Source: Polyangiales bacterium (GTDB lineage: Bacteria; Myxococcota_A; Polyangia; Polyangiales; CBDCBC01). From it: 64,000 nucleotides of DNA. The stretch is taken from NCBI GenBank assembly GCA_044224525.1, contig JBGAKI010000001.1, positions 12,917 through 76,916 on the forward strand. The letters run 5' to 3'. Below the pieces are notes generated by a model, which was given only the letters and a program-made list of their open reading frames with translations, did no database searches and was not told the origin of the DNA. Positions 10,514 through 50,867 of the stretch are shown here, piece after piece. The position numbers and the translations under genes were made by a program. Numbering within the stretch: position 1 is the stretch's first letter; the number at the start of each line of letters is the position of its first letter.

Positions 10514-11197
10514 GTGAAAAAGAAGCTTGTATTAGGTTTTTGCTTATTTTTATGCGTTGAAGCAAAGCAGTATAGTGTCGCTGCAGGCGGGCCACCTCCA
10601 TCGCCGACAGATCCAGAGCGCAGTTTTTATTGTGGAAAGGTAGGCAATCCATTTCCCGATGAAGGAGGCTGTACGTATTACGTCGCCTTAGATGTAAGCA
10701 GGTTGTGTAAGCAGATTGCTGATGACACTGTTGCGTATCTGCGTGCATCTACCAAGCCGGTGTATGAAGATTCTTCTATCGAAGGAATAGAAAGTTTCTT
10801 TGATGACATACTAACCAATGAAACTGATAGAGTTGAGGTGTATTCGCATAGAGTTCAAACTAGTACCGAGCTTATTGACGTAAATAAGATTGATAACGAC
10901 GGGGCGCTTAAAAAATACTGGCCCGGACCACAAAAGGCATTTGATAACTATACTAAAATACAATCCTTTACTTATGACCCTGTGGGTGGTCGTATGCTTG
11001 CTAGTTTTGGTTTGACGAAAAAGGATCCAAACAAGATGAGCGATTGGACTAATCCAGATGAAGTGGAAGAATGCCCGTCATTTTTTTCAGGTGGAGCTCA
11101 GCTAAGCGGAATTCAAAAGTATATGCTCAAAGAATTTTTTTATGGGCCATATTACACCGCGATGGAATATATCGCTGCGCACTATGCTTGCCAATAG
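10514..11197 (+). CDS. Secreted hypothetical protein with conserved Cys pattern (probable paralog of 50289-50867)
   Basis: GAGGA RBS, signal peptide, AT-rich; lies between two oriIS-like copies. Confidence 0.75.
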   Translation: MKKKLVLGFCLFLCVEAKQYSVAAGGPPPSPTDPERSFYCGKVGNPFPDEGGCTYYVALDVSRLCKQIADDTVAYLRASTKPVYEDSSIEGIESFFDDILTNETDRVEVYSHRVQTSTELIDVNKIDNDGALKKYWPGPQKAFDNYTKIQSFTYDPVGGRMLASFGLTKKDPNKMSDWTNPDEVEECPSFFSGGAQLSGIQKYMLKEFFYGPYYTAMEYIAAHYACQ

Positions 11198-11298
11198 CAC
11201 GATCGATTGAACAATAGGTCAGAGGTCAACTTTCTTGGCATGAAGAAGTCCGTTCTTGAAAACTACAACGCAAGTCTCTTGTATTTACTTTAGGTGCA

Positions 11299-11465
11299 GT
11301 GCAAAACACGAGTAAAAAACGTCAAAAAAGCTTAGTGCACTGGCCTAAAGTCCATGCAGTGCAAATCGCAACGCACATCGTGCGCTTGAATACGAAAAAC
11401 AACGACCCGCCCGGCCGCACGAACTGAGCGAAAACTCAAAAAGCCGTATTTGATTTTCCTATACG
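11299..11465 (+). mobile_element. IS91/ISCR oriIS-like right end, copy 2
   Basis: ~167-bp near-identical direct repeat of 10277-10444, ends tttgattttcctatacg. Confidence 0.8.
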
Positions 11466-11624
11466 TCGACCAAGTGTAACGAGGCTTATGCGAGAGTTAT
11501 GAATGACACGGTGGGCAGCATTTTCTGAAACGCAAGCTACCACACTAAAACACGGCGCCGCTATTGCTGATTCTTAAACAACAGTTAGCGAAGGTGAGGG
11601 CCAAGTCTCAACTTTTAACCCTGC

Positions 11625-12743
11625 TTAGTATGGTTGGGTCTTGAGCATACAGGATGCACTTTCGCAATATGCGAGCTCGAGAAACTCGCGACGCCAAGCG
11701 AGTACATTGGTATAAGTCGATTCCGACGCATAAATATTCGAGAAGTCGGTTACCTTTTTTTGGTCTCGTAGATAATAAAAAACTCGATCGACATATCGAC
11801 TGAGCCTCTCGTCGAGTACACGCCGCGTAATACAAAATAGCTCATTATTTCCAACCAGAATGGTGTCAACATTACTCAGCGTTCCGATGACTTCAATGAC
11901 GCCGTCGCGTGTCGTAAAAAGCGGCCCTCCAGAGTCTCCATGCTGAACAAAAGTGCCCAACTCGGTCAAACAAAGAAAAGATGGCTCGTCTAGTTGATCA
12001 TAAGAAAAAATCCGCAGTGGTGCCCCTGCAAGTTCAAACTCTACGCGAGGGTCAACAAGATCTCCATCATCGAGCGCTCGAGTAAAGGTTGTTTGTCGAT
12101 CATATGGCTGGTTCTCTCCAGCATTATACGTCGCCCCAGCGATCTTATAATCTTGTGATGCATCGTAAGTCTTAAGACTTACATCTAAGAGATTTGTAAG
12201 CGCCGGCGTCCCGTCTTGCAGTTTGATGTTTTGAAATTGCGTTGGCCATACTACAAGACCTTTATCATACCATCCCGACAGTGGAATCACTTCTCCTATA
12301 TCATGCGTAAAATAAGAGGGATCTTTGTACATGTGTGTATCGTCTTTTTCGGAGCAAAAAACCAACTCAGGGTGTTGGTTTGCAGCAAGACAAATGCACG
12401 AAATATTTGCTTCGTTTTCATAGGCCGCAATGACATGCGCAGACGTTAGTAACGATGATCGAGTCGGACCCATCAAAGTGGCTGTTCCTAAAAAGACTGG
12501 AATCTTTTCGACGTTTACTATCTCAGCAACCTCGTCTATTGTAGTCGGGCACGCACCATCGTTCTTTTTTGCAGTTCCGTAGAGTGCAACTACGTTCGCG
12601 AGCGCGGGCTCTGTCGCCAGAGTATCCGAGCTTGGTTTATGGATAGCGCTTTGACGCTCTTGTATCTCGTCATGACCGCTGCAAGCCGCCACAACAAGCC
12701 ACCACGCTGCTAGCGCTGCCGCCCGTAAACTAAGATAAGACAT
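11625..12743 (-). CDS. Trypsin-like (S1) serine protease lipoprotein (start at MSYLSL inferred)
   Basis: Lipobox VAAC; LLTSAH (His), YDKGLV (candidate Asp), HGDSGGPL (Ser). Confidence 0.8.
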   Translation of the reverse strand: MSYLSLRAAALAAWWLVVAACSGHDEIQERQSAIHKPSSDTLATEPALANVVALYGTAKKNDGACPTTIDEVAEIVNVEKIPVFLGTATLMGPTRSSLLTSAHVIAAYENEANISCICLAANQHPELVFCSEKDDTHMYKDPSYFTHDIGEVIPLSGWYDKGLVVWPTQFQNIKLQDGTPALTNLLDVSLKTYDASQDYKIAGATYNAGENQPYDRQTTFTRALDDGDLVDPRVEFELAGAPLRIFSYDQLDEPSFLCLTELGTFVQHGDSGGPLFTTRDGVIEVIGTLSNVDTILVGNNELFCITRRVLDERLSRYVDRVFYYLRDQKKVTDFSNIYASESTYTNVLAWRREFLELAYCESASCMLKTQPY

Positions 12744-12800
12744 AACTAAGGCTAAAATTATAGCTGAAAAAAGAATGCGGTCGAGCGAGAAAATAATTCG

Positions 12801-12831
12801 CCCCAAAAACCAAAGACTTTGTATAAGCCGA
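12801..12831 (+). repeat. 31-bp direct repeat, copy 2 (right island boundary)
   Basis: Identical to 5964-5994. Confidence 0.9.
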
Positions 12832-12872
12832 TGCTCGAGAAGAACGACGGCCTATAGCTTGGTGCACCGCAC

Positions 12873-13850
12873 TTAGCTTGCCAAGTGACACGCGGCAAAA
12901 TGTCCGGGGGTCAGTTCGCGCAGCTCGGGTACTTTGACATCACACAGCCCTTTTTCAGCGATCGGGCAACGCGGATGAAACGTGCAACCAGGTGGCGGTG
13001 AAATGGGGTTGGGAATTTCGCCCGCGATTACCAAACGTTTGCGTTCGGTCGTTGGGTCGGGGATCGGCACCGCATCGAGCAACGCGCGTGTATATGGGTG
13101 CTTAGGTGTGGAATAAAGTGCTTCGGTGGGCCCTTGTTCAACAATGCTGCCCAGATACATCACCGCCACGCGATTGCTAAGATGGTGCACCACGCGCAAA
13201 TCGTGCGAGATAAATACGTAGCTCAAACCAACTTGCTCTTTTAGATCACTCAGCAAATTAATAATTTGCGCCTGAATCGACACATCAAGCGCACTTACCG
13301 CTTCATCCGCGACGATAAGCTCCGGATTCACCGCCAAGGCGCGCGCAATGCCGATGCGCTGGCGTTGCCCGCCGCTGAACGCATGTGGGTAACGCTCCAC
13401 TGTGTCCGCCGCGAGACCCACGCGTTCTAGCAATGACACCGATTTTTCGCGCGCCTCTTTGCGCGACTTCACCAGCTTATGCACAATCAACACTTCGCGC
13501 AGCGTTTGCCCAATGGTCATACGCGGGTTGAGCGACGAATAGGGGTCTTGAAATATGATTTGCGCTTTGCGTCTAAACTTGATCAGTTCTTTTTGACGCT
13601 GCTTGGTAATGTCGGTGCCATCAAAGAGCACTTGCCCGGTGGTGGGTTCATGCAGCCTCAGCGCAACCCGCGCAAACGTGCTTTTGCCGCACCCCGACTC
13701 GCCCACAAGCCCCAGCACTTCGCCGCGCTCAAGCCGCACGTTCACATCTTTCAAGGCGCGCAGCGTCTGCTTGGCGCGGCCAAATAAGTTGCGCTTCACC
13801 ACAAAGGTTTTGCTGAGGCCACGCGTTTCAAGAATTGGCGCTTCAGCCAT
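12873..13850 (-). CDS. Oligopeptide/dipeptide ABC transporter ATP-binding protein (OppF/DppF-like)
   Basis: GESGCGKS, FSGGQRQR, DEAVSALD, C-terminal GCTFHPRCP...ACH. Confidence 0.93.
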   Translation of the reverse strand: MAEAPILETRGLSKTFVVKRNLFGRAKQTLRALKDVNVRLERGEVLGLVGESGCGKSTFARVALRLHEPTTGQVLFDGTDITKQRQKELIKFRRKAQIIFQDPYSSLNPRMTIGQTLREVLIVHKLVKSRKEAREKSVSLLERVGLAADTVERYPHAFSGGQRQRIGIARALAVNPELIVADEAVSALDVSIQAQIINLLSDLKEQVGLSYVFISHDLRVVHHLSNRVAVMYLGSIVEQGPTEALYSTPKHPYTRALLDAVPIPDPTTERKRLVIAGEIPNPISPPPGCTFHPRCPIAEKGLCDVKVPELRELTPGHFAACHLAS

Positions 13851-14877
13851 CGTTCACCTCGTTGTCGGTTTTTGCTGCGCTCACTTCACCATACGGATGA
13901 TGACACGCCACCCAATGGCCGTCTTTAAGCTCGCGCAGCGCCGGATCTTCAGCAATGCATTGCGCGCTAACACGCTCGCATCGGCTCTGAAAACGGCAGC
14001 CTTTGGGTAGCGCATCCAAGCGCGGCACCACCCCCGGAATAGTCTTAAGCTTGTGTTTGCTTTGCCGCTGTCGATCGAAAGTTGGCAAGCTTGCAAGCAA
14101 CCCATGCGTGTAAGGATGCGCGGGCGAAGCAAAGAGCGTGCGCGTCGACGCACGTTCGACCACGCGTCCCGCATACATCACCGCAACATCATCGGCGAAC
14201 TCGGCCACCACGCCCAAGTCGTGCGTGATCAGCAAAATGCTCATGCCTACTTCTTGTTGTGTTTTACGCAAGAGCTCTAAAATCTGCGCCTGCACGGTCA
14301 CATCGAGCGCGGTGGTGGGCTCGTCGGCGATCAACACTTTAGGCGTACACGCAAGCGCCATCGCAATCAACACACGCTGCCGCATTCCGCCTGAAAGCTG
14401 GTGTGGGTAAGCATGCACGCGCGACTCGGCCGCGGGGATGCTGACTTGTTTCAAGAGTTCGATCGCTCGCGCAAGGGCTTCTTGACGTGACATCTTTTGG
14501 TGTACGCGCAGCACCTCGGTGATTTGTGAGCCCACCGAAAGCACGGGGTTCAGCGCGCTCATCGGGTCTTGGAAAATCATCGCCATCTCGCGCCCGCGCA
14601 CGCTGCACATGTCACGTTCTTTCAGTTTGAGCAGGTCGCGATCCTCAAGCTTAACTTCACCTTCCACCACCGAGCCGATATGTGTGGGAATAAGCCGCAT
14701 CATCGAAAGTGCTGTCACACTCTTCCCCGAACCCGACTCGCCCACAAGCCCAAGCGTCTTCTTGCTCGCCAGCGTAAAACTCACTCTATCAACCGCGCGC
14801 ACAGCCTTGCGCTTACCAACGACAAGATTGCCACTGGCGGCGCGAAACTCGGTGCTGAGATGATTCACTTCAAGCAT
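13843..14877 (-). CDS. Oligopeptide/dipeptide ABC transporter ATP-binding protein (OppD/DppD-like)
   Basis: [24 protein letters not shown]. Confidence 0.93.
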
Positions 14878-14897
14878 GTTTGACTTAGCTTACCAGC

Positions 14898-15827
14898 TTA
14901 AGGGTGGGTACAATCCATATAACGCACATCAACGCTCGTGTCGGGTTCTTGCTGAAACGCCCCCTTTGGCAGCGCTCGGTTGAGTTCAATATCTTTGAAA
15001 TTGAACACGGTGTTGATGTCTTCGCTCGGCACCTCTAGCTGAATTTGGGTGGGCATCGCCACGCCTTGCACTTCTTTATGCGAGCCAAGCGGTGCCCGCA
15101 CCACTTCATAATCATCATAGCTCACATGCCACTGCACCTTGCCATCGGCACTGTGCATCGTCGCTTCGCGCAAGCGCAAGCGCTGCTCGTAAGGCTCACG
15201 GTCAACATCCACCTCACGCACATCAAACGCTTGTGTCAGCGTGCGCCCATCCTTGAGCTTGGTTGTGGTTTCATATCCATGTGCACCGCAGCTAGGCGCG
15301 CCCTGACCAAGCTCGCCGCGATAAGGCGCATCCCCAAGCAAAATCATCACCATCTCGCTTGCTGTAAAGGGCACCCCAAGCTTGCGCCCTATCTCGCGCT
15401 CACAATTTTGTCCATACCGATAACGTTTGCGCCCAATATCAAACATCGCAAACACATCACCGTTGTAAGTTGCCGTCATCACCGGCCCAAACTGGGTCGA
15501 CACATCGATGCGAATATGATTGGGTGGCTCAACCATCATCATCAACGTGGCGCGCACGCGCCCACCATCACCACGCTGCTCAACGCGCGCCTCGCCCACA
15601 AACGACGTCACATAAGCGCGCGTCGATCGGTACGCACTCTCAAGCTTCACGCTTTCCACAAACGGCTTGCTCGGACATCGCGCCCCCCCACACCCTACCA
15701 GCATCAAAATCAACAGCAAAGCAAGTACACAAAGCGGAAAGAAAGATTTCTGGAGTGCGCGGGTGCTCCCGCTTTGTCTATCAGATGAACCCATTGACCA
15801 CATCCAACGCAAGTTGATAACGCCCAA
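14898..15827 (-). CDS. Lipoprotein, LolA/LolB/DUF4292-like fold (true start probably downstream of 15827)
   Basis: Lipobox LVGC, beta-rich sequence ending IELNRALPKGAF. Confidence 0.65.
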   Translation of the reverse strand: MGVINLRWMWSMGSSDRQSGSTRALQKSFFPLCVLALLLILMLVGCGGARCPSKPFVESVKLESAYRSTRAYVTSFVGEARVEQRGDGGRVRATLMMMVEPPNHIRIDVSTQFGPVMTATYNGDVFAMFDIGRKRYRYGQNCEREIGRKLGVPFTASEMVMILLGDAPYRGELGQGAPSCGAHGYETTTKLKDGRTLTQAFDVREVDVDREPYEQRLRLREATMHSADGKVQWHVSYDDYEVVRAPLGSHKEVQGVAMPTQIQLEVPSEDINTVFNFKDIELNRALPKGAFQQEPDTSVDVRYMDCTHP

Positions 15828-17631
15828 ACGGAGGCATGATGTATGCTCCCTGCACGCGATGCTTCACAGCATCAAGCATTTCGCGCGCGATCGCAACGCC
15901 TTCTTTGCGACCCAAATCGCTGTTACCCGCGCGCCGCATCCGCTCGCGAATCTCTTCGGGCACTGCCATACCTGGCACTTCATTATGCAAAAATTCCGCA
16001 TTGCGATAGCTCGCAAGCGGCAAAAGCCCAACCAGCACCGGCACTTTCAACGGCGCCACATCGTTCAAGAACCGATCGAGTACCGCGGGATCATATACCG
16101 GCTGCGTCATAATCAGCTCCGCGCCCGCCTGGCATTTCGATTTCAGTCGCGCGATCTCGCGTTGATAATCATGCGCCGCAGGCTCCGCACCCGTTGCACA
16201 CAAAAACTCAGTCGCGTGATCCATCAGCTTGCCGCCGGGGTCCACGCCGTGGTTCAACTCACGCGCCAAACGCAAAAGGCCAATCGAATCCAAATCATAC
16301 ACCGCCGTGGCATCCGGAAAATCACCCATTTTAGGCGGGTCGCCTGTCACCACCACCAAGTTGCGCACACCAAGCTCGTGTGAACACAACAAATGAGCCA
16401 CCAACCCCAGCAGGTTGCGATCGCGCGTCGTCACATGCATCAAGGTTGGCATATCAAATTTTTCTTGAATGCGCGTACACAAGGCAAGGTTACCCATGCG
16501 CGCTGTCGCGCGCGCGCCATCTGCCACATTGATTACGTCCACCCCGCCATCTTTGAGCAATTTCACGCCCGCCATCGTTCGCTCTAAATCAAGCCCCGCC
16601 GGTGGATTCACCTCAACCGACACAATAAACTTATTCGTCGAAAGTTTTGCGCCAAGCACACCTTTTTCATGCGTTGCTTTGACGGTATGATGCGTTTCGA
16701 TCTCAATGCGCGGCGGGTTGCTCTCGCGCATACCGCCGCCGCTTTCATTTCCTGCAGCGCCCATCATGCGCGCCGCTTGCGCAATCTTGCGCACGTGATC
16801 GGGCGTTGTGCCGCAACACCCACCCACGGCATTCACGCCCGCCTTATAAAGGCGCCGCGCATACACCATAAAATACTCAGGCGTCGCAAAATACGCCATG
16901 CGCCCTTCGATGCGCTGCGGAATGCCAGCATTGGGCTGCGCAATCAAGGGCAACTTCGCGCCCTGCATCCGCGTCACCATTTCATACACACCCGCCGGCC
17001 CCGTGGCGCAATTCACCCCTATTGCTTGCACGCCCAAGTTTTTAAGTTGCTCAGCAATCGCTTCGGGCCCCGTGCCATCGGCCATCGTGCCAAACGCATC
17101 AAACGACACCAACGCCAACACGGGGATACGACCCTGCGCCGCCTCTTGCGCTGCTTCAATCGCAAGCTTCAGTTCGCTGGGTTGGCGAAACGTCTCAAGC
17201 ACAAACGCATCGATGCCTTCATCAGCCAACGCGCGACACTGCTCAAGAAAGGTATTCTTAATCTGCTGTTCTTCCTCAGCATTAAGCGCTTTGATAATCA
17301 ACCCCGTTGGCCCAACCGATGCTCCCACAAATGCTTCATCGCGCACCACCTCGCGCGCAAGCTTCACCGCGGCTTGATTAATCAGCACGGTCTTGTCGCC
17401 CAGTCCGTGCACGTTCAGGCGCAGGCGGTTGGCGCCAAACGTGTTGGTTGTGATGAGATTTGCGCCGGCTTGCAAATAACCACGGTGAATTTCCTGCACC
17501 AGTGCCGGGTTCGACAGACACGCTTCTTCAAAGCACTTATTATAAAGCATCCCGCGCTCGTAAAGCTGGGTGCCCACAGCGCCGTCAAAAACCAAAGGTG
17601 TGCTCGAAAGCCGATCAAGAAATGCGTTCAT
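15781..17631 (-). CDS. Bifunctional homocysteine S-methyltransferase / methylenetetrahydrofolate reductase (YitJ-like)
   Basis: DGAVGTQL, GVNC, GGCCGTTP followed by MTHFR domain (VEVNPP, TGDPP, TQPVYD). Confidence 0.93.
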   Translation of the reverse strand: MNAFLDRLSSTPLVFDGAVGTQLYERGMLYNKCFEEACLSNPALVQEIHRGYLQAGANLITTNTFGANRLRLNVHGLGDKTVLINQAAVKLAREVVRDEAFVGASVGPTGLIIKALNAEEEQQIKNTFLEQCRALADEGIDAFVLETFRQPSELKLAIEAAQEAAQGRIPVLALVSFDAFGTMADGTGPEAIAEQLKNLGVQAIGVNCATGPAGVYEMVTRMQGAKLPLIAQPNAGIPQRIEGRMAYFATPEYFMVYARRLYKAGVNAVGGCCGTTPDHVRKIAQAARMMGAAGNESGGGMRESNPPRIEIETHHTVKATHEKGVLGAKLSTNKFIVSVEVNPPAGLDLERTMAGVKLLKDGGVDVINVADGARATARMGNLALCTRIQEKFDMPTLMHVTTRDRNLLGLVAHLLCSHELGVRNLVVVTGDPPKMGDFPDATAVYDLDSIGLLRLARELNHGVDPGGKLMDHATEFLCATGAEPAAHDYQREIARLKSKCQAGAELIMTQPVYDPAVLDRFLNDVAPLKVPVLVGLLPLASYRNAEFLHNEVPGMAVPEEIRERMRRAGNSDLGRKEGVAIAREMLDAVKHRVQGAYIMPPFGRYQLALDVVNGFI

Positions 17632-17703
17632 GGATGTACTTTTGCTGGATAAACCACGCGAAGCATACTCGAAATGTGCTCGAAGGGTAGTTTCCGTTAT
17701 GCG

Positions 17704-18549
17704 TCATGCAAGCGTGATGCTTAGCCCTTCATAGGCCGCAATCGACCCGGCAAACATCTGTTTGGCATGTTTTTCCAATGCCAACACCGCATCGTCGCCG
17801 CGATCGGGATCGTGATGAAAAAGCACCAACTGCTTAGCACCTGACAACTTTGCAAGTTCAATGCTTTGAGTATACGTCGAATGTCCCCAGCCCTTTTTAT
17901 TCGGCCCAACCACGCCGCTGTACTCGTCAGGGGTATACATCGAGTCACAAATCAGCACGTCCGCACCTTTGACAAACTCAACCAGCCCCGGCGCCGGCGT
18001 CGCATCCATCTCATTATCAGTGGCGTAAACCACACTTTTGTTTTTGTAGTCGACGCGGTACAAAAACACCCCACCCGGGTGATTGCCCGCAAACGCGCTG
18101 ATCGTGGCACCATTGTCGAGCGTGATCACTTGCGAAGTATCCATGTCGTGAAACACAAGCGTGCTCGGCAAATCCGCCAGCGTGAGCGGAAAGTTTGCCA
18201 GGTTCATCTGCCCCGCAAGCGACGATTCAACTGAGCCCCAAGCCGTGCTCTGTCCATACATATGAATCGTGTGCACTTTGGCAAAAGCCGGTGCAAAAAA
18301 CGGAAAGCCTTGAATATGGTCCCAGTGCACATGGCTCAAGAACATATGCATCGTCAGCGCCTGCGCGCTTTGTTTCGTCAGCGCATTACCCAGCTCCCGA
18401 ATACCGGTGCCCGCGTCAAAAATCAAACGCGTATCGCCACACAACACTTCAACACAACTCGTGTTGCCGCCAATCTTCAAGGTCGAGGGCCCAGGCACCG
18501 GCACGCTACCGCGCACCCCCCAAAATCGCACCTGCATCGACGAGCTCAT
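17704..18549 (-). CDS. MBL-fold metallo-hydrolase
   Basis: WGVRGS, GGNTSC, SHVHWDHIQG, WGHS, FHHDP. Confidence 0.93.
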   Translation of the reverse strand: MSSSMQVRFWGVRGSVPVPGPSTLKIGGNTSCVEVLCGDTRLIFDAGTGIRELGNALTKQSAQALTMHMFLSHVHWDHIQGFPFFAPAFAKVHTIHMYGQSTAWGSVESSLAGQMNLANFPLTLADLPSTLVFHDMDTSQVITLDNGATISAFAGNHPGGVFLYRVDYKNKSVVYATDNEMDATPAPGLVEFVKGADVLICDSMYTPDEYSGVVGPNKKGWGHSTYTQSIELAKLSGAKQLVLFHHDPDRGDDAVLALEKHAKQMFAGSIAAYEGLSITLA

Positions 18550-18621
18550 GGCCTATACGATACGGTCTGCGTGTCCAACGATCAACAAAGTGTTTTTTTA
18601 CCCCAACTGATCGGACCCAAC

Positions 18622-18786
18622 ATGCGTTTAAGACTCTTTTTTGCCGCATTTCTTTTTTTCCTACTAACCGCGGGTACCTGCGACCCGGTCAACGACGGTT
18701 TTGGCGGCCCCTGCTATACCAAATGCGAAGACGGCGGCCCAAACAACGCCGACGCCGGTGGCTGCCGGAAAGTTTGCCCCGTCTAA
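18622..18786 (+). CDS. Small Cys-rich secreted/lipo-peptide (54 aa)
   Basis: MRLRLFFAAFLFFLLTAGTC signal then CxxxC...CxxxC; fills intergenic gap. Confidence 0.6.
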   Translation: MRLRLFFAAFLFFLLTAGTCDPVNDGFGGPCYTKCEDGGPNNADAGGCRKVCPV

Positions 18787-18899
18787 CAAGCCCACCCATC
18801 CGTTTCACGACAAGGAAGAATATTTACAGCTAAAGAATAATTTAACCTCTCATCATATCGTATTCTGATAGGTACACTTCTTGCTTCAGTTAGCTCGCA

Positions 18900-32971: not shown

Positions 32972-33058
32972 GGAGAGCTGGCCGAGTGGTCGAAGGCGCT
33001 TGATTCGAAATCAAGTGTGCCCGTGAGGGTACCATGGGTTCGAATCCCATGCTCTCCG
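32972..33058 (+). tRNA. tRNA-Ser(CGA), CCA not encoded
   Basis: GGAGAGC/GCTCTCC acceptor, CTTGA-TTCGAAA-TCAAG anticodon arm; TTGACA-16 nt-TAGTTT promoter from 32937. Confidence 0.95.
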
Positions 33059-33064
33059 CTAGCC

Positions 33065-33092
33065 GGTGACATGCACTGTGGTGCGTGTCACC
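33065..33092. repeat. 28-bp REP-like palindrome between two tRNA-Ser genes
   Basis: ggtgacatgcactgtggtgcgtgtcacc. Confidence 0.88.
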
Positions 33093-33100
33093 TCCGTTTA

Positions 33101-33191
33101 GGAGAGATGACCGAGCGGTCGAAGGTGCACGACTGGAAATCGTGTGTGCCCCAAAAGGGTACCGAGGGTTCGAATCCCTCTCTCTCCGCCA
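33101..33191 (+). tRNA. tRNA-Ser(GGA)
   Basis: GGAGAGA/TCTCTCC acceptor, CACGA-CTGGAAA-TCGTG anticodon arm, encoded CCA. Confidence 0.96.
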
Positions 33192-33192: not shown

Positions 33193-33888
33193 ATGCGCTG
33201 GATCGTTATCACAATGGTCGGCTTCGTCAGCACGTGCACACGTGTGGATCAGAACAACTTGCTTGAAACGGCAGTTTACGATGTAGGTGTGGAGTGGCTG
33301 CGCAGCTGCCCAAGCGATGCGCCGCGTTATGCGGCCAAATATCCTGATGGCTGTTACCTTGAGAGATCAGCCCACATCAGAAAGTGCGACACCTTCGCCA
33401 CATTTTTCCAGACCCACGAGATACCTGTCCTCAAGACAGTGATTGCGCGCGCCGAGCAGGATTATCTTTCCAGCTTAGGTGGTGTTGCAGGTCCCCCCAA
33501 GGACCTTTTCCTCAGTGGCCTGATCGATATCGAACACCAAATCATGTATTCGATCTTGCCGCGTCAGATCGATCCGCGCAGCGCATTCTTTCAAAACGTC
33601 GGTCGCCATTCAGGACTGCACTTGGACTGGAACGCGGAACCTGAGGAAGTCTACCGCGATCGTTTATCGTTTCGCGTGTTGCTTCACAAAGGCGAGTGCG
33701 AGCCAACCGACGGCGCATCAAATGCCGCGAACCCTTTTATGACGGGTTCTGAACGTGACCGTTTTGACGAAGCGACGCGTGCTTTCGTTTGGCGATTTTA
33801 TGAACGCGTTTTTGATCGATTGATCGAACAAATCAAAGAGCTTTGCGGTGGCGATGTCGCGATTTCCTATGATCGCTCAGCAACCTAG
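33193..33888 (+). CDS. Hypothetical secreted/lipoprotein (possible paralog of 54926-55732)
   Basis: In-frame ATG just after the tRNA CCA gives an MRWIVITMVGFVSTC signal-like N-terminus. Confidence 0.65.
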   Translation: MRWIVITMVGFVSTCTRVDQNNLLETAVYDVGVEWLRSCPSDAPRYAAKYPDGCYLERSAHIRKCDTFATFFQTHEIPVLKTVIARAEQDYLSSLGGVAGPPKDLFLSGLIDIEHQIMYSILPRQIDPRSAFFQNVGRHSGLHLDWNAEPEEVYRDRLSFRVLLHKGECEPTDGASNAANPFMTGSERDRFDEATRAFVWRFYERVFDRLIEQIKELCGGDVAISYDRSAT

Positions 33889-41612: not shown

Positions 41613-41631
41613 CACCAGGCGTAGCTGCCGC

Positions 41632-41667
41632 AAAAAAAAAGGCCCGCTCTGTGCAGAGCAGGCCTTT
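41632..41667 (-). terminator. Intrinsic terminator after atpE
   Basis: aggcctgctctgcacagagcgggcct hairpin followed by a T run on the minus strand. Confidence 0.8.
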
Positions 41668-41685
41668 GGCTTTCGAGCGAGGCTA

Positions 41686-42018: not shown

Positions 42019-42081
42019 TTTTTTTGCCTCCTCAATCTGTCCAAAACAAGTGTCCAGGCCTCTGCCCAACACATTAACTTC

Positions 42082-42882: not shown

Positions 42883-42895
42883 TCGTTACCTCGCG

Positions 42896-43261
42896 TTACC
42901 TTGATAGTTTAGCAATCAGCCCAATAGGCATGGTCGCAAGACCCAAAAAAAAGCCTGTGGGATTAAGTTTAAGGATGCCAAGACCGAGCCATGGCAGCAC
43001 AATCAACGTCGCCACACGCGCCACGGTGTATCCACCCAGCTTCCACGCGGCAGTCTGGCGACCGACCAATCCATCGACCCATTGCCCCGTAAGCCCAAGC
43101 TCGATCAGCCCAACCATGCTCCCAAACGCCGCCGCCAGCGCCACTGTGGGTAGGCCTGCCAACCAAAGGATGCTGGCAAGCGCCCAGCCCAAAAGCCCGA
43201 CAACCAGCAAAAGCATGGGTACCGCCGAAGGCGTATGCATTCTTTGAAGCGATAGGTTCAC
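42896..43261 (-). CDS. AtpI-like membrane protein
   Basis: Four hydrophobic segments, directly upstream of atpB. Confidence 0.65.
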   Translation of the reverse strand: MNLSLQRMHTPSAVPMLLLVVGLLGWALASILWLAGLPTVALAAAFGSMVGLIELGLTGQWVDGLVGRQTAAWKLGGYTVARVATLIVLPWLGLGILKLNPTGFFLGLATMPIGLIAKLSR

Positions 43262-43405
43262 AGGAAGTTCAGTACGGGGTTAGACAAAAAAGCGGCTTTC
43301 AAAACGGCGTTTTTTGCGTGTTTAACGTAAACCCAAAACCCGGGCTTACGGCGCAGGCTGTAGCATTAAGGCCCCCAAGGTCAAGCTGCCAAGCCGTCGC
43401 CCGGC

Positions 43406-44317
43406 TTAAGACCGCTTACCGCCAAGTGGGTGCGCCTTGCTATAAACTTCCTTAAGCTGATCAAGCCCCAAATGCGTATAACGCTGCGTGGTCGACAGTT
43501 TGGCGTGACCGAGCAGCTCTTGAATGGATCGCAAATCAGCCCCTGCTTCAAGCAAGTGTGTTGCACAGCTATGTCGTAGGGCATGGGGATGTAAGCGCGC
43601 TTCAGGTGTGGCAAGCATGCCGTATTTGCGTACGATATTTTGCACCTGCCGCGGCGAAATGCGTCGACCCTGGGCGCTAAAAAACACAGCATCGTCAAAA
43701 CGCGCGCTGGGTCGTGCTCGCAAATAGCCCATCAACGTTTCACACGCCTTGGAGCCAAGCGGCACCATGCGTTCCTTATGACCTTTTCCAAGCACACGAG
43801 CGCGTCGGCTCGCAAAATCAATATCGCCGACATTAAGTCCGCAGAGTTCAGCAAGGCGAATGCCTGTTCCATAGAGCAGTTCCAAAATCGCGCGGTTGCG
43901 TTCACTTAGATGCACTTGCCGCGCATCGCTTGAGTCATGGGCGCGTGGTGCACTCATTAGTTGCTCGGCACTCGCGGCGCTCAAATAGCGAGGCAGCATC
44001 ACGGGCAGTTTGGCCGAGCGCAACGCTTGCGCTGGGTTGTGTTTGATTAAGCCTTGGCGTTCGAGGTAGCGAAAGAATGTTCGTGTGGCTGCAAGTTTTC
44101 GCGCTCGGCTGGTCGCGGTGTGCGAGCTAAAGATCGACGCAAAGAACGAGCGAAGTGCTTGGGGTGTAAGGTCGTGCCATTCGCTCACGTTCTTTTGTGC
44201 GTTCAAGTAGGCATCGAGCGCATGCAAATCGCGTTCATAGGCATGAGCCGTATGCGCAGACAACCGTCGCTCATGTCGCAGGTGCTTGATAAACGAGTCT
44301 ATTTGTCGCGCCCGCAT
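43406..44317 (-). CDS. xerC: Tyrosine recombinase XerC
   Basis: LELLYGTGIRLAEL, GKGHKER, HPHALRHSCATHLL, LGHAKLSTTQRY; topA-trmFO-xerC synteny. Confidence 0.92.
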   Translation of the reverse strand: MRARQIDSFIKHLRHERRLSAHTAHAYERDLHALDAYLNAQKNVSEWHDLTPQALRSFFASIFSSHTATSRARKLAATRTFFRYLERQGLIKHNPAQALRSAKLPVMLPRYLSAASAEQLMSAPRAHDSSDARQVHLSERNRAILELLYGTGIRLAELCGLNVGDIDFASRRARVLGKGHKERMVPLGSKACETLMGYLRARPSARFDDAVFFSAQGRRISPRQVQNIVRKYGMLATPEARLHPHALRHSCATHLLEAGADLRSIQELLGHAKLSTTQRYTHLGLDQLKEVYSKAHPLGGKRS

Positions 44318-44394
44318 TCTTTAAGCCTGCCATGACGCCGATATTGCAACAAGTTTTTGCGGCCAAAACGCTGGTGAAGCGTTTGTAGTCTGTT

Positions 44395-45366
44395 ATGATT
44401 AATGAGTTGCGGCTTAAGAGGGCACCCTTGTTTTTCCATTCGTCGACTGTCGTCAATGTGTTAGTCGTTCTGTGCATTCATTGGGTTGCATGTGGTCGTG
44501 TGGGCTTTAAGCCACCACCTCTCAAAGGCCCAAGCCCGGGCGTAACCGATGGATCGGTGGCGGCGAGCTGCCTTGATAAGATACTCAACCAAAACGAAGA
44601 GCAAGTGGATTGCGGCGGCGATTGTCCGCCGTGTGCGAACGCCACAAGCTGTTCCGATTTGCTTGCAAAACGACCGAACGCAACGAGCCAAGTTTACGAG
44701 CTCGATATTGATGGTGAGTCTGGTTTACTTGCTCCCTTCTTCGCTTATTGTGAGATGGTTGCAGATGGCGGCGGTTGGACGCTGATAGCAAAAATGGATG
44801 GAGCCAAACAAACGTTCGCATATGACGGCGTGGCATGGACCGACGACAATACTATCAACGAGACGCTGCCTGACCTTGACGACAACGAAGCCAAACTCCG
44901 ATCCTACGCTGTACTACCCTTTAACGACATCCGACTGGGCATGAAAGTAAATGGGGTGCCGCATTGGATTGTGCTTACGGCGTCTCAACTTAGTGGTGCA
45001 GGGGTTGCGCCGTTTTCATCATTCGGTGCATTGATGAGGCTCGGCACCAACGTCGCCACCGCGATTGGACGTGCGCAATGGTTAACATTAATCGGTGCAT
45101 CCGCCATCCAGCTCAACTGTAACCGCGAGGGTTTTAACGTCAACGCCGACAACCAAGGCCACCCTCGCGTGCGTATTGGCATCCTTGGCAATAACGAAAC
45201 GGATTGCATAGCCCCCGATTCGTTTCTTGGCTTTGGCGGTCAAACAGGCCCGTTTACATCGCCCGCGGCCATGTTTGACACGGTTGTTGGTAACGGTGCA
45301 GTGTACAACTCGGCGGGTGGCGGTGACCGCAACACCTACGCCATTGGCTACATCATGGTGCGCTAA
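44395..45366 (+). CDS. Fibrinogen-like (YCxxxxxGGGW) domain lipoprotein
   Basis: Lipobox [20 protein letters not shown]ys repeat, [13 protein letters not shown]. Confidence 0.8.
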
Positions 45367-46721
45367 GGTGTGCTAGGCACCAACTCTTCGATGCCCGCTC
45401 GCCACCGCGTTTGGCTCATCCAGACGTTGTTCGCTTCAAGCGCGCGTTCGGCCATGCGCAAATAGCGGGTGCGTTTATCCAGGCGCTTGTGTGCGCCTTC
45501 AAGTGGCGCAAACATACTCCACAATATATTCGAGGGCTGAAAGTTATCGCGCACCGTGCGCAGATAACCATACAACGCGCCAAGGGCGCTGTTGGCAGCG
45601 GGCGCAAGAAACACGCCACGCTGAATTTTATGTGCAAGCCCAACGCCGACCACAAAACCACAGGCCGCGCTTTCAAGATAACCTTCAACGCCCGTGATTT
45701 GCCCAGCCAGGTGCACGTTGGCCTGTTGATTCAGCGCAAGTTCATCGTTGAGTGCAATGGGCGCATTCACAAACGTGTTGCGGTGCACAGTGCCAAAGCG
45801 CAAAAACTCGGCCTGTTCAAGACCAGGAATCAGCCCAAACACGCGCTTTTGTTCGGCGAACGTCATGCGTGTTTGGAAACCCACCATGTTAAACGCAGTC
45901 TGCGCCTGGTCCTCAGCACGCAATTGAACAACCGCGTGGGCCCAGCGTCCCGTACGCGGGTCGGTCAGGCCCACCGGCTTCATCGGCCCAAACGCCAAGG
46001 TTTGGGGTCCCCGTTCGGCCATCACCTCAACCGGCAAACAGCCTTCAAAATAACGTATCTCTTCAAATTCACGTGGTTTGACTTTGTCCGCTTTGATCAC
46101 TTCATTCACAAAGGTTTCGTATTGCGTCTGATCGAGTGGACAGTTGACATAGGCATCATCGCCGCCTTTGTCATAGCGACTGGCTCGAAACACTTTGTCC
46201 CAATCGATTGAATCTGCGCTAACCACCGGCGCAATGGCGTCGTAATATGCCAGATGGTCTTGGCCCACACATTGCGCAATACGATTAGCCAGCTGTTCAC
46301 TGGTCAAAGGTCCCGTCGCGATCACCATCGTACCGTCATAGGCAAGTGTGTTCACTTCTTCGGCACGCACGTCGATCAGGGGATGGGCTCGCAGGTTTCG
46401 AGTGACTTCCGCTGAAAAGGCCTCGCGATCGACCGCTAGCGCACCGCCCGCCGGCAAGCTGTGCTGATCGGCGCAGCGCATAATCAGCGAACCCGATCGA
46501 CGCATCTCTTCTTTAAGCAGTCCCACCGCGTTATGCAGCGCCGCGCCCCGAAACGAATTCGAGCACACAAGCTCGGCAAAATGATCTGTTTGTTGAGCGG
46601 GCGTGCGTTTAATAGGTTTTTGTTCAATAAGTTCGACGCGCAGCCCGCGCTCGGCCAGTTGCCAGGCGCACTCGCTACCGGCCAAACCCGCTCCAACCAC
46701 CCTGATCGCTTTTTTATTCAT
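45363..46721 (-). CDS. trmFO: Folate/FAD-dependent tRNA U54 methyltransferase
   Basis: [39 protein letters not shown]. Confidence 0.97.
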
Positions 46722-46874
46722 GTTACACGCGTGGCGGAGTTGTAAGCGTTGTCACCGCTTCGTGCAAATCCTCGCCCCGTCCATTACGACAAAGTGACCT
46801 AGCCAACGCACTGCGCCTGCCTTGCACTGCCGCGCGGCATCAGGGATCGCGGAAGGTATCGACGCGCCGGCGTT

Positions 46875-47378
46875 CTAGCTTGCTGCTTGCGCGACGAGCA
46901 CTGGCTGATCAACAGGCGTCAATGTCGACTCAACAAACGACTTAAACTTCAGAAGATCGCGTTCAAAACTGCGCCTTAAACGATTGCCAATAAACCCAGT
47001 AATAAGGCTGGACACGATGCCATGAAGCTGTGCGTCGTAGCGCGCCAGCACAAGCGTGTGATCCGGTTGGTGATACAGTTCGAACTTCAAGAGATGCTCA
47101 CCTGCATCACTATGATCAGGGTCGCGCTCAATGCGAAAGCCAATATGGGTCGGGCTCTCCAGAAAAATCACAGCATACTCGTCCGCAAAAATCTTTGAGC
47201 CGACCTTACCAATGCACGTGAACATCGTTCCCACACTCACTTTGCCCGGCGTCACCTTTTCCACAGCGTCCACGTTGTGTACCCAATGCTTGAAGCTTTC
47301 AACATCGGTGATTGCCGCAAAGATCTGCTCAAGGGGTGCGCTGATTCGAGATGCCGAGACAAAAGATATATGTGCCAT
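46875..47378 (-). CDS. SRPBCC/START-like family protein
   Basis: ISAPLEQIFAAITD...W N-terminus and C-terminal DLLKFKSFVE helix. Confidence 0.8.
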   Translation of the reverse strand: MAHISFVSASRISAPLEQIFAAITDVESFKHWVHNVDAVEKVTPGKVSVGTMFTCIGKVGSKIFADEYAVIFLESPTHIGFRIERDPDHSDAGEHLLKFELYHQPDHTLVLARYDAQLHGIVSSLITGFIGNRLRRSFERDLLKFKSFVESTLTPVDQPVLVAQAAS

Positions 47379-47638
47379 AACGATCTTAGAAAAACTCTAC
47401 ATTTGGGATCCACAAAGGGCAACTAAGCGACGTCGAAATTTAGTCGATATTTTTCATGTTTCAGCGGTGCGCCGAGGGATTTCCCTCGAGTTTTCTCAAA
47501 TCTGCCTTGTTTTCGCCATCGATCCTCGATGGATCACATATTGACCCTAGGATCACCCCGTGAGATACTCCCCGAGCGTTGGCTGCTGCTCATAATATCG
47601 AGTGTCAGCCAACCGTTCAGAAACAAGGAGAACGACCC

Positions 47639-48133
47639 ATGAAGAAACTAAGTGTTGTATTAAGCAGTTTGATCGCCGCCGCTACGTTAATCTCTGCTAC
47701 GCCCGCTGCGCATGCTGAGCACGGTTACGGTGCTGCAGGCTGCGGTTTGGGTTCGATGGTCTTCGGCAGCAAGCCAGGTCTTGTTCAGGTGCTTGCCGCA
47801 ACCACCAACGGCACGCTTGGTAGCCAGACATTCGGCATTACCACCGGCACCAGTAACTGCAAAGCCGCCGATCCAGGCATGGTCGGTGCTCAGGCTTTCA
47901 TTCAAACCAACCGTGAAGCGTTTGCGAAAGACGTATCGCGCGGCCGTGGCGAGACCATCAACAGCTTGAGCAAGCTTGCCGGTTGTGAAGACTCCAAGGC
48001 TGTCGGTAGCGTGCTCCAGAAAGAGTACAAGAGCATCTTCCCGACCTCAAACGCCAGCGACCAGTCAGTGAGCGAGTCAGCGGTCAAGACCCTGAAGAGC
48101 CACTCAGAGCTTTCCTGCCGCAAAGTAGGCTAA
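47639..48133 (+). CDS. DUF3015-like secreted protein
   Basis: GAAGCGLGS...ATTNGT...TFGITTGTSNC, SRGRGE; AGGAG RBS. Confidence 0.88.
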   Translation: MKKLSVVLSSLIAAATLISATPAAHAEHGYGAAGCGLGSMVFGSKPGLVQVLAATTNGTLGSQTFGITTGTSNCKAADPGMVGAQAFIQTNREAFAKDVSRGRGETINSLSKLAGCEDSKAVGSVLQKEYKSIFPTSNASDQSVSESAVKTLKSHSELSCRKVG

Positions 48134-48175
48134 ATCGCTCAGAAATAAAGTGCGTTTCACAACGCGCTTTACAAG

Positions 48176-48214
48176 AAGCGCTGGGTTGCTAAAAGCAACT
48201 CGGCGCTTTTTTTT
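48176..48214 (+). terminator. Intrinsic terminator between DUF3015 and DUF4105 genes
   Basis: aagcgctgggttgct-aaa-agcaactcggcgctt hairpin with T run. Confidence 0.75.
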
Positions 48215-48223
48215 GCTCTCTTT

Positions 48224-50242
48224 ATGACTCCAACCCACCGCACCATTCGTTCATCCCTCACGCTTAGCGGTTTTGTGTTCTTTGTGCTGACGGGTGGATG
48301 TGGCGCCTCAAATCTTTCCGCGCGCATGCCCCGCCAAAGCGTCGTGCCCGCCGAACACGACTATGTTGAGCACTTGGTCGCAGCGGCCAAGAAACGCCGC
48401 CTTGCGTTTTCAACGATGTGGCTGCGTCTAGGTCACTACAAAAAAAGCTCATATAGCGACGACTACACCAGCGAGGCAGACGGTGCGTTGTTCTTTATGG
48501 CCAAAGACGGCAAACACAACCCCGAGGCTGAGCTTACCGAAACCCTGCGTGGTTTTTTTCACGATCCATACGCTTACGACAAGAAACTCAAAGGCGCCGA
48601 AGCGTTCGGCGAGATTCAACATCCAGCCTGTCGTTTTCCAGCGCGCTTGGCGTATCTAACCGAACAGCTCGATATCGACATCGCACGCATCCCGGTGCAA
48701 GCGTGCCCCCGCCTGGCCAAGTTTTGGCAACAGATGAGCCCCAAATCAGCGAGCTTCATTTTTTCGTCTTATTACCTGAACAATCCGGCCTCGGCCTTTG
48801 GTCATGTGTTTTTACGCTTTAACAAAGCAGGCGACGCAGTCACCGGCGAGCGCCAAGAACTGCTCGACTATGGCATCGATTACTCGGCCGATGTCGACAC
48901 CGGCAACGCGATCATCTACGCCTTCAAAGGCATCTTTGGTTTTTTTCCCGGCACCTTCAAACAGATGCCTTTCTATTACAAAGTACGCGCCTACAACGAC
49001 TACGAGTCGCGCGACATGTGGGAGTACGAACTCAACCTTTCCCCCAAAGCGCTCGCCATGTTGGTCGCGCATATTTGGGAGCTTGGGTCGACGTATTTCG
49101 ATTATTACTACATCGATGAAAACTGCGCTTACCACGTGCTTGGTTTGGTAGAGGTTGCCGATCCGAAGCTTGATCTGTCGTCTAAACTTTCCGATCCCGT
49201 GATCCCCGCGCAAACCGTACAGATCCTGAGCGCCACACCTGGGTTGGTGAAACACATACGTTTTCGCCCCTCGCTGCGCAGTCAGTTTCGCGCCCGCGTC
49301 AAAGACTTAAATAGCGACGAGCTCGACATTGTCGATGAACTTGTCGAGGATCCGAACCACACGCTGCCCAGTGCGTGGTCGCTTGAAAAACAAGCGCGTG
49401 TGTTCGATGCCGCAGCAGATTTGGTCGACATCCTCTACGGAAAAAAACTCATTCATCACCAAAGTAAAGAAGCCGCCGAGCTTAAGCAGCGCTTACTTAA
49501 ACGTCGCGCAGCGCTCCTTGTCGCCACCGATGCACCCAAGGTGCCAGTGCCCTGGGACAAAGTGCCAAGCAAGGGTCATGGCGCGCGCCGTTTTGGGTTG
49601 GCCCCCGGGGCCGATTCGAAACACAACGGCTATCTGAGCATCGATTTTCGCTTGGCCTTACATGACTTGGCGGACCCCGCCGAAGGGTTTCCCGACCTAT
49701 CACAAATCGAATTCACCTCGGGTCGCCTGCGCATGGGCTTATGGAACGACACCTTCAAAGTGATGGTCGATGACGCAGCGTTTGTGCGCATTGTGTCATT
49801 GACCTCGATCGATCGCTTCGACCCGCAGTTTTCGTGGAAGTTCAGCGCCGGCGCCACCACCCTGCGCGACAAAAGTTGTGAGTGGTGTTTGGCTGGCAAC
49901 ATCGAAGGCGGCACCGGCTTAGCGCAAGCCTTCTTCAATAAAGGCGTGGTCGTCTATGCCACACTCGATGGTCAAGCACTCTATAGCCCCTCGATCGACA
50001 TGCTTGCTGGTTTTAGGCTCGGCGTCGGACCAGCAGGCGGACTGCGCTTAAAGCTCGACGACAACTTGATCATCCTGAGCTCAGCCAAGTGGCGCTGGAA
50101 CCCCGAGCAAGCGCAGCGCACCTGGTGGCAAGCAGACACCATCCTGCGCTACAGCCCAGTCTACGACTTTGCGCTCAGCCTCGAAGCACGCGCTTATCCG
50201 GGTTTACAAGAACTGCAACTCTTCGCACTCTTTTACCTATAA
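48224..50242 (+). CDS. DUF4105 / Lnb-like outer membrane protein
   Basis: CRFPAR, NNPASAFGHVFLR, YYYIDENCAY, C-terminal beta-barrel-like region. Confidence 0.85.
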   Translation: MTPTHRTIRSSLTLSGFVFFVLTGGCGASNLSARMPRQSVVPAEHDYVEHLVAAAKKRRLAFSTMWLRLGHYKKSSYSDDYTSEADGALFFMAKDGKHNPEAELTETLRGFFHDPYAYDKKLKGAEAFGEIQHPACRFPARLAYLTEQLDIDIARIPVQACPRLAKFWQQMSPKSASFIFSSYYLNNPASAFGHVFLRFNKAGDAVTGERQELLDYGIDYSADVDTGNAIIYAFKGIFGFFPGTFKQMPFYYKVRAYNDYESRDMWEYELNLSPKALAMLVAHIWELGSTYFDYYYIDENCAYHVLGLVEVADPKLDLSSKLSDPVIPAQTVQILSATPGLVKHIRFRPSLRSQFRARVKDLNSDELDIVDELVEDPNHTLPSAWSLEKQARVFDAAADLVDILYGKKLIHHQSKEAAELKQRLLKRRAALLVATDAPKVPVPWDKVPSKGHGARRFGLAPGADSKHNGYLSIDFRLALHDLADPAEGFPDLSQIEFTSGRLRMGLWNDTFKVMVDDAAFVRIVSLTSIDRFDPQFSWKFSAGATTLRDKSCEWCLAGNIEGGTGLAQAFFNKGVVVYATLDGQALYSPSIDMLAGFRLGVGPAGGLRLKLDDNLIILSSAKWRWNPEQAQRTWWQADTILRYSPVYDFALSLEARAYPGLQELQLFALFYL

Positions 50243-50288
50243 ATATCAACACGTTGTCTGAGAGTAGCGGACATGCTACACTTTCAAA

Positions 50289-50867
50289 GTGCGCGTAAAC
50301 TTCGTCTTACTCACCTTATCACTGCTTGCCGGTTGTGATCAGCGCCAAACGCTTGCAGAAGACATAAGCGCTCAGAACGCCGTATTCGCCTGCGGAGCGT
50401 ACAACGAGCGCCTTCAGTTTAATGAGCGACCGAGTGGAGATTGCAGTGTGATCGACCCTGTTGTACTAAGCCATGCATTATGTCCCGAGCTCCTCAAGGA
50501 TCGCGATATTGCTCGAGAACTTGCTCACTTCACCTCGACATATCAACCACCCTGGCAGTTCAACGATGCCATCACAACCATTCTAAATAGAAAGAACCTC
50601 GAAGATAGGAAAGGTCTACTGCTCTCCCTCTACTCGGAAGGTAAAGAAGGGTGGATCTACGATTTGTACTACTCGGGCCCCGAAAGTAGAACCCTAACAC
50701 TTGGTTCGGGCCTTACCCAATACATCTCTCAAACCACCTGCCCAGAATGGTTCAAGGACTCGACCTCCGAGCAGCGCGAAACCTTGGCCAAGGGTTGGCA
50801 CGAACAGAACAACCCCTTCAAAGGTTTGTTCAAACTTCTCGCCGAGCGCGCCTACCTTTGCGACTAA
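50289..50867 (+). CDS. Hypothetical lipoprotein (probable paralog of 10514-11197)
   Basis: Lipobox LAGC; conserved Cys spacing; TGCTACACT extended -10 6 nt before GTG. Confidence 0.78.
   Translation: MRVNFVLLTLSLLAGCDQRQTLAEDISAQNAVFACGAYNERLQFNERPSGDCSVIDPVVLSHALCPELLKDRDIARELAHFTSTYQPPWQFNDAITTILNRKNLEDRKGLLLSLYSEGKEGWIYDLYYSGPESRTLTLGSGLTQYISQTTCPEWFKDSTSEQRETLAKGWHEQNNPFKGLFKLLAERAYLCD

Follow-up and report, generated by a model that had tools for sequence, protein, structure and literature searches.

The window analysed here is a 64,000-nucleotide (nt) stretch of contig JBGAKI010000001.1 from a Polyangiales bacterium (assembly GCA_044224525.1). It contains two open reading frames (ORFs), designated A and B (Table 1), which the original prediction, made from the sequence alone, assigned to one secreted, disulfide-stabilized family sharing a cysteine scaffold over its full length. 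Both ORFs and all eight motif pairs on which that assignment drew are present where it placed them, in the same order. Behind a hydrophobic leader, A carries mature cysteines at positions 40, 53, 65, 187 and 226; those of B are at positions 35, 52, 65, 151 and 191, in addition to the lipobox Cys16. Our analysis indicates that A and B likely belong to a previously unrecognized, extremely divergent family of about 150 predicted exported proteins, so far confined to one lineage.

Table 1. Features of the window, family members first
Feature	Coordinates	Strand	Remarks
Member A	10514..11197	+	227 amino acids (aa); signal-peptide-like N-terminus; five mature Cys; N-type; E-x4-C at E35/C40
Member B	50289..50867	+	192 aa; lipobox LAG-C16 and five further Cys; N-type; no E at -5
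Third member	33193..33888	+	likely start just past tRNA-Ser 33101-33191; 0/500 Cys-fixed shuffles reach held-out score
Tentative fourth member	54926..55732	-	lipoprotein; five mature Cys; E-x4-C; promoter site 6 nt before start
IS91-family transposase 3' fragment	9784..10218	+	33-35% to plasmid proteins, one annotated 'IS91 family transposase'
First end repeat	10257..10445	+	downstream of IS91-type transposase fragment
Second repeat copy	11293..11465	+	93% over 174 nt vs first copy; downstream of A
Weak sigma70-like promoter site	10480..10507	+	score 5.1; ends 6 nt before GTG of A
Left direct repeat of island	5964..6019	+	bounds 6.9-kb island
Right direct repeat of island	12801..12856	+	86% over 56 nt
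Upstream flank of B	48224..50242	+	Lnb_N/DUF7840/DUF7843 protein; DUF3015 (47579-48133) before it
Downstream flank of B	50894..53257	-	topA, convergent with B
Strong sigma70-like promoter site	50254..50282	+	-35 TTGTCT, 17 nt, TG-n-TACACT; score 11.7; ends 6 nt before GTG of B
Strain-variable slot	50251..50948		promoter of B, B, last 18 codons and stop of topA

The relationship is not apparent from direct comparison of the two proteins. The best BLASTP E value between A and B is 3.6. Over 20 settings of matrix, gap penalty and alignment mode, the shuffle z score ranged from −1.10 to 2.45, and at the best setting (z 2.45) 22 of 1000 shuffles reached the real score. In phmmer searches among 9442 ORFs with E values up to 50, A and B did not retrieve each other; 42 of 1608 genome ORFs match A at least as well as B does, and 63 of 1608 match B at least as well as A does. 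The direct alignment from which full-length kinship was originally argued is not above chance and fails the shuffling test proposed along with the argument. Among each other's family matches (n = 118), B ranks 14th and A 28th, and the two are likely outlying members of the family rather than mutual closest relatives. Their shared ancestry becomes visible only via family profiles; the original conclusion was right but was reached from evidence that was itself not significant.

The family emerged when the ORFs of the genome were ranked by global alignment to A or B, which brought up many leader-bearing proteins of 190–250 aa with the same cysteine spacing. The corresponding pattern, a leader followed by five spaced cysteines, is matched by 139 of the 1877 non-shadow ORFs of 140–420 aa, and shuffled-sequence controls gave 9, 10, 9, 6 and 6 matches. 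With 139 matches observed and about 8 expected, each pattern match has a chance of about 94% of being genuine before profile evidence is considered. A hidden Markov model (HMM), iterated with A and B left out, expanded from 22 to 59 members and matched A with E values of 6e-9 to 1e-4 and B with E values of 2.9 to 2e-4, although the genes of its seed had been picked for their resemblance to A and B. A second seed comprised seven genes linked by BLAST, its entry points again taken from the A and B similarity rankings; it yielded 45 members, 43 of them common to the first list. The union of pattern and HMM matches comprises 147 genes, corresponding to 4.9% of the 3019 roughly called genes and 3.1% of the DNA, spread over 61 of 146 contigs. 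An extended set of 165 candidates additionally includes 18 hand-picked ones, partly truncated or tentative. BLASTP connects only 15 of the 147 members with any other, at identities of at most 32%. A leave-one-out analysis with the cysteines held fixed gave a median z of 3.1 for the non-cysteine signal (72 of 95 members above 2; eight at about 1 or below), so the family signal consists of more than cysteine. We are highly confident that the family itself is real.

For A and B, membership was assessed with block HMMs built from 92 members, with the window genes excluded, and 500 shuffles in which cysteines were fixed. Of these shuffles, 1 of 500 attained the summed score of A (1 of 500 also for the N-block taken separately) and 5 of 500 that of B; among 2266 scored non-family genes, seven score as high as A and four as high as B. 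A stricter cysteine-anchored score that ignores the cysteines themselves gave weaker support, with z values of 1.67 for A (44 of 1000 shuffles) and 2.10 for B (21 of 1000). Combined with the prior of about 94% from the pattern excess, these results make membership of both proteins likely. The window holds a well-supported third member and a tentative fourth, the latter without profile support (97 of 500 shuffles reach its score).

The strict five-cysteine set comprises 119 members, of which 95 are N-type and 24 are C-type. The median N-type arrangement is C1-x15-C2-x12-C3-x102-C4-x30-C5, with middle spans of 64–171 residues. The C-type proteins lack C1 and have a cysteine a median of 12 residues past C5, and in two proteins of an internal type (C51:4385 and C51:6074) the fifth cysteine lies in an E-x4-C motif 15–16 residues past C4. 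In hhalign comparisons, the N-blocks of the N- and C-types matched with a probability of 88.6 (E 2.6e-6) and the C-blocks matched weakly (E 0.006), with 63 decoy clusters reaching a probability of at most 0.6; these matches were obtained with block alignments alone, and the whole family alignments A1 and A2 gave a non-significant E value of 0.15. Among ORFs with a leader and the C2–C5 core, 112 have five mature cysteines, 16 have seven, two have four and eight have six, against null expectations of 4.6, 4.2, 1.5 and 4.6, respectively. An odd count leaves one thiol without an intramolecular partner, and each protein probably carries one conserved spare thiol. The predicted disulfide-stabilized scaffold therefore needs amending, as the cysteines are not simply paired off and the pairs that would stabilize it are putative.

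A Glu residue stands five positions before the fifth cysteine in 60 of 95 N-type and 8 of 24 C-type proteins and in both internal cases, against a background of 6.5%. It is commoner in N-type proteins without a lipobox (44 of 57) than in those with one (16 of 38) and accompanies an aliphatic residue at −2 (41 of 60 proteins with Glu vs 3 of 35 without). In 1990 tests, no residue outside the neighborhood of the motif covaried with this Glu, and no His, Asp or Ser is conserved at 20% or more near any cysteine. Hydrophobic periodicity suggests that a strand joins C2 to C3, that a helix follows C3, and that the C4–C5 segment forms two helices with an N-P-F-like turn. The three-cysteine candidate C51:8711 lacks C2 and C4 together, which supports their pairing, and on balance we lean towards disulfides C2–C4 and C3–C5. 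A crude pattern finds a lipobox-like site in 56 of the 119 proteins, with Asp or Glu at +2 in 38 of these 56; the same kind of search found no twin-arginine (Tat-like) leader in any of the 165 candidates.

The family could not be traced beyond its host, whose genome is 3.3 Mb long and 99% complete and whose best topA matches place it in Polyangiales. Among 5.8 billion proteins, A and B each retrieve only themselves within lengths of 0.55–1.75 times their own. The N-type profile has 42 matches among 1.84 billion proteins, all from this genome, and a search with the C-type alignment returned three proteins, each on a contig apparently of this genome. Profile searches of other genomes of the order gave no match in 60 genomes and none in 400 (nine candidates scored per genome in the larger search). 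The five-cysteine pattern does not occur in 400 kb each of the relatives G001, of the same family, and G038, where 16.8 matches would be expected in each at the density of the present genome, nor in 292 kb of Polyangia topA loci; the relatives searched are samples and do not prove that the family is absent elsewhere. Near-identical DNA was found in one bioreactor sample, possibly the source, and short pieces in sludge runs. Neither A nor B matches any Pfam family, and across Pfam, NCBIfam and PHROGs no family is matched by more than one of the 95 members (best E values 0.0036, 0.034 and 0.0048). A sequence search of the PDB gave no match for family alignment A1 and one unrelated match at E 0.05 for A2, and the ESM Atlas returned nothing usable for A and a best score of 0.77 for B. 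A suspected likeness of the first strand to SRPBCC/helix-grip proteins was rejected at the level of profiles when five family alignments, compared with a set from about 60 PF10604/PF08327-type domains, gave hhalign probabilities of at most 0.15 over one column, with a working positive control. Of the original characterization, lineage specificity, fast evolution, export, dispersal and the lack of a Pfam match stand; the size does not, as the family has about 150 genes rather than a few.

Activated-sludge Myxococcota have been reported to have the largest secreted complements, much of them unlike known proteins (PMC11495043), and predation has been suggested for sludge Polyangiales (PMC11821767). 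No description of the family was found in the available text of PMC11495043 or by keyword search of four of its supplements, one of them incomplete, and full-text literature searches, whose scope was outside subscription papers and bioRxiv supplements, returned no report of it.

Gene A is part of a 6.9-kb island (5964–12856) that comprises A and three other exported-protein genes at 46–48% guanine–cytosine (GC) content. Its own GC fraction of 0.423 is the lowest among the 165 candidates (0.512 ± 0.025), which suggests import from a not-yet-sampled relative. The end repeat that flanks A is what we take to be an oriIS. The cassette described in the original prediction is borne out insofar as two repeats of 170–190 nt, 93% identical, enclose A and an IS91-type transposase fragment precedes them, the oriIS identity itself being presumed. 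IS91/ISCR elements are known to capture genes, and the position of A between two element ends, downstream of a transposase fragment, resembles such capture; unlike a general mechanism, this explains A only, since the other members are not linked to the repeat. The oriIS context is peculiar to A, as the other two matches of the repeat in the genome have no member within 2.4 kb, which rules out IS91 ends as a general dispersal route. From the weak promoter site, a leaderless transcript of A is possible. The island further contains a transposase fragment (6117–6428; 42% to plasmid ORFs), presumably IS4/IS10-like, two exported proteins without a Pfam match (6741–7994 and 8207–9658), an imperfect inverted repeat (7964–8150) and a trypsin-like lipoprotein with a weak Trypsin_2 match (11625–12806).

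The surroundings of B agree with the original prediction in its position beside topA, its lipobox and a promoter site close to its start codon, from which its transcript would be leaderless. The locus varies between strains. On the left, contigs of sequencing runs X1, X4 and X5 match the window up to 50250 and then differ for 332, 90 and 134 letters, respectively; on the right, contigs of X1, X5 and X6 differ before 50949 and match from there on. The unlike ends agree between runs, which come from four studies, and X1 carries both forms. In our reading, the right unlike end keeps to the topA frame and encodes a similar tail. The slot formed by the promoter, B and the end of topA thus appears to have a second, diverged version, of which only the ends were read, as no contig spans it. 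Neither this genome nor JGI metagenome contigs yielded the left end of this second haplotype, and a search with the flank gave no relative. Two relatives carry other genes after topA.

Among the genes flanking B, DUF3015 and Lnb_N form a pair (47579–50242) situated between trmFO and topA; searches of five relatives did not turn up the Lnb_N protein. In runs X1 and X4, substitutions in the Lnb_N gene cluster at 49611–49681. The topA of the window (50894–53257) lacks a short N-terminal stretch found in relatives G007 and G015. In relative G001, dprA and trmFO are immediate neighbors without an intervening topA, and a search for topA in this relative at E 1e-100 gave no match.

Across the genome, members are dispersed, as originally proposed, but not strictly as single-gene units, given that 52 of 147 adjoin another member. 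Of the 67 neighbors scanned inside the fetched loci, 44 have Pfam matches, mostly to housekeeping families, and 23 have none; no recurring partner gene was found among them, and no convincing shared motif downstream of the members. A −10-like box 6 nt before the start is found in 93 of 1244 cytoplasmic genes, a genome-wide peak (25–51 genes at other distances) which suggests that leaderless transcription is common in this organism. It is not specific to the family, in which it is not enriched (25 of 152 vs 144 of 1124, p 0.25). The genome has three secretin loci, which we presumptively assign to pilus, Tad and type II secretion; one is beside a gene that we presume to be CpaB-like. FHIPEP and VipB were not found in the genome. 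A three-domain DsbA-family protein of 661 aa (C70:16495–18480), which accounts for all four DSBA matches of the genome, adjoins a family member. Biosynthetic trp, leu, ilv, pur and bio genes are present. Two further loci were recorded: at C93:18908–20560, a 550-aa protein with a pre-toxin TG domain (PT-TG) adjoins a family member, and C22:31604–32431 partially matches (35 bits) the TLC ATP/ADP transporter family.

The combination of a conserved clamp, a freely varying middle, many copies and strain variation, with neither a catalytic set nor a cognate partner, points to a binding repertoire under diversifying selection. We tentatively propose, at a confidence just short of even, that the proteins serve in surface binding and, with the same reservation, that they form a variable repertoire displayed at the surface and covalently tethered via the spare thiol. 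The members would be exported by Sec, about half of them as lipoproteins. Disulfides C2–C4 and C3–C5 would clamp a strand–helix N-block to a strand–helix–helix C-block, leaving a hypervariable middle of 60–170 residues to form the binding surface. A short E-x2-aliphatic-x-C strand would end at the C2/C4 pole and occupy one structural slot wherever it stands in the chain, a natural permutation, and the thiol of this movable strand would link the protein to another copy or to a shared carrier. Display could proceed via a secretin system, and contact with prey, grazers or phages may drive the diversity. The genes would spread as small units, be swapped by recombination in conserved flanks, as at B, and sometimes be carried by IS91-type capture, as with A. 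A bolder version, which we regard as unlikely, posits an antibody-like repertoire on an undescribed fold that takes up 5% of the genes of a free-living bacterium, with the strand permuted among three positions, combinatorial heterodimers of different members joined by the thiol or a cross-linked variable coat, and exchange of promoter plus gene between strains.

Several observations weigh against this interpretation at its different levels. Membership of A and B in their own right has moderate support: the C-block of A is not above shuffles (156 of 500 reach its score), and E values from the second seed were unstable, ranging from none to 5e-6 for A and from none to 7e-4 for B. Single-sequence AlphaFold models of A and B were unusable (predicted local distance difference test values of 39.1 and 43.6), and fold searches on these low-confidence models were uninformative (best Z 4.2, best E 1.2). 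The proposed pairing depends on spacing and a few hand-picked variants. One further variant, C130:13956, lacks C1 and C2 and keeps C3, C4 and C5, which fits a C1–C2 pair equally well, and even counts occur in C2:2484 (four cysteines), C94:18007 (six) and the fusion protein C88:1599 (eight). Regarding display, the members without a lipobox, about half, could stay in the periplasm, and no carrier gene for the thiol tether was identified. Promoter sites are in excess in the family (38 of 154 vs 129 of 1138), but the difference is not significant in four strata, defined by upstream orientation or gap and tested at a lower promoter cut-off.

Among other explanations, the proteins could be a periplasmic library of decoys or immunity proteins that, within the envelope, bind and neutralize incoming toxins, phage proteins or lytic enzymes. 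The mixture of lipoproteins and soluble proteins and the frequent Asp or Glu at +2 suit such a role, as do, on general grounds, the protein size and the strain-variable slot of B. Orphan immunity genes, however, usually travel between taxa, and this family has no homologue in the other taxa searched; only one of the 67 neighbors has a toxin-system domain (PT-TG), and the odd cysteine would be left unexplained. We consider this unlikely, and slightly more so the possibility that the family is a library of effectors sent into prey or a protist host via type II or Tad secretion, with the spare cysteine linking cargo to carrier. The secretins, including the one beside the CpaB-like gene, could provide the route, and sequence-unrelated, disulfide-held proteins expanded in one lineage are the pattern known from MAX effectors (PMC4624222). 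Against this stand the predicted lipid anchor of about half the members, the lack of a cognate immunity gene among the 67 neighbors and of a catalytic motif, and the biosynthetic genes listed above, which give no sign of host dependence.

It is improbable that C1, C2 and C4, which would lie at one pole, instead serve as metal ligands or as the site of a modification such as lipidation, or that Glu and Cys form an active site. The odd cysteine count and the E-x4-C motif would be accounted for, and lipidation of non-lipobox cysteines in MYXO-CTERM proteins has been proposed for Myxococcota (PMC11980579). Yet none of the 165 leaders is Tat-like, the Glu is absent from 35 of 95 proteins, no membrane helix follows the cysteine, candidates lacking one or two of the three cysteines exist, and 150 divergent copies are hard to reconcile with one chemistry. 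Least probable, and very unlikely, is a real family whose cysteine spacing A or B shares by chance, or a set that combines several unrelated families. The non-significant A–B pair, the eight members with low leave-one-out z values, the 6–10 false matches to be expected and the few non-family genes that reach the scores of A and B all leave room for it, but the excess of pattern matches and the held-out results (1 of 500 and 5 of 500) speak against it.

The family was also compared with known systems. Like the MAX effectors of Magnaporthe, its members are small, secreted, sequence-unrelated, disulfide-held products of a one-lineage expansion, found by pattern and HMM rather than BLAST; MAX effectors are fungal six-stranded beta-sandwiches with one disulfide (PMC4624222), whereas the present proteins are bacterial, of about 190–300 aa, predicted alpha/beta, half of them lipoproteins, and have an odd cysteine count. 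MAX-type effectors keep one conserved fold despite unrelated sequences; the present proteins may do so too, as cysteine spacing and hydrophobic periodicity suggest, and the likeness is one of analogy, not membership. If the binding model holds, function might be like that of the MAT fiber adhesins of Bdellovibrio, a diversified surface repertoire of a predatory lineage facing many prey epitopes; those are trimeric fibers with solved structures (PMC10769870), and the profiles of this family match no solved sequence. SitA toxins are likewise polymorphic lipoproteins encoded at many loci in Myxococcota and variable between strains, but every sitA is paired with a cognate sitI and encodes a toxin domain, and they are widespread in myxobacteria (PMC5562445). 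Membership in SitA was rejected, there being neither a cognate neighbor among the 67 scanned nor a toxin-domain match, nor a homologue among 400 other genomes of the order. For outer-membrane exchange by TraA/B, the profile TIGR04566 matched nothing in five genomes, nor in any control. MYXO-CTERM, from the same phylum, shares a short motif with an invariant non-lipobox cysteine, a proposed anchor of proteins exported via type II secretion, but requires a C-terminal membrane helix and an Arg-rich tail (PMC11980579). A and B end one residue past their last cysteine, which excludes them from this class, and the two TIGR03901 matches in the genome are frames of 630 and 389 aa outside the family. 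Tat-exported metal or Fe-S proteins were also rejected, the twin-arginine leader being absent from 165 of 165 candidates.

With this assignment, some 150 seeming orphan genes are united in a single family, which gives a single origin to much of the secreted proteome that had lacked an explanation in a small-genome Myxococcota lineage. Variable exported repertoires as such are already known; what is new is a family, some 150 genes strong, whose unpaired cysteine shifts in position and in which the fungal-effector-like pattern of sequence-unrelated proteins on one cysteine scaffold appears in a bacterium. It offers a natural test set for the drift of a disulfide scaffold (below 32% identity) and for strand permutation, and the conserved spare thiol is a handle for finding a partner and a function. 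As BLAST clustering misses such families, pattern-first searches may reveal others in uncultured lineages.

Some observations concern individual loci. The third member of the window begins right after the second of two tandem tRNA-Ser genes (32972–33191); elsewhere, members lie within 90 nt of tRNA-Gly (contig C9) and tRNA-Gln (C126), and a long ORF overlaps tRNA-Gln on C47. In the 306-aa lipoprotein at C88:1599–2519, a four-cysteine family core is fused behind another cysteine-containing domain. C14:2846, C9:48155, C69:27597, C134:5851 and C47:177–790 are possibly truncated or frameshifted members; two of them end where C5 would be, and C47:177–790 is split over two frames. A separate pair of cysteine-rich lipoproteins with different spacing (C62:26808–27431 and C98:16079–16831) shows 21% identity by BLASTP.

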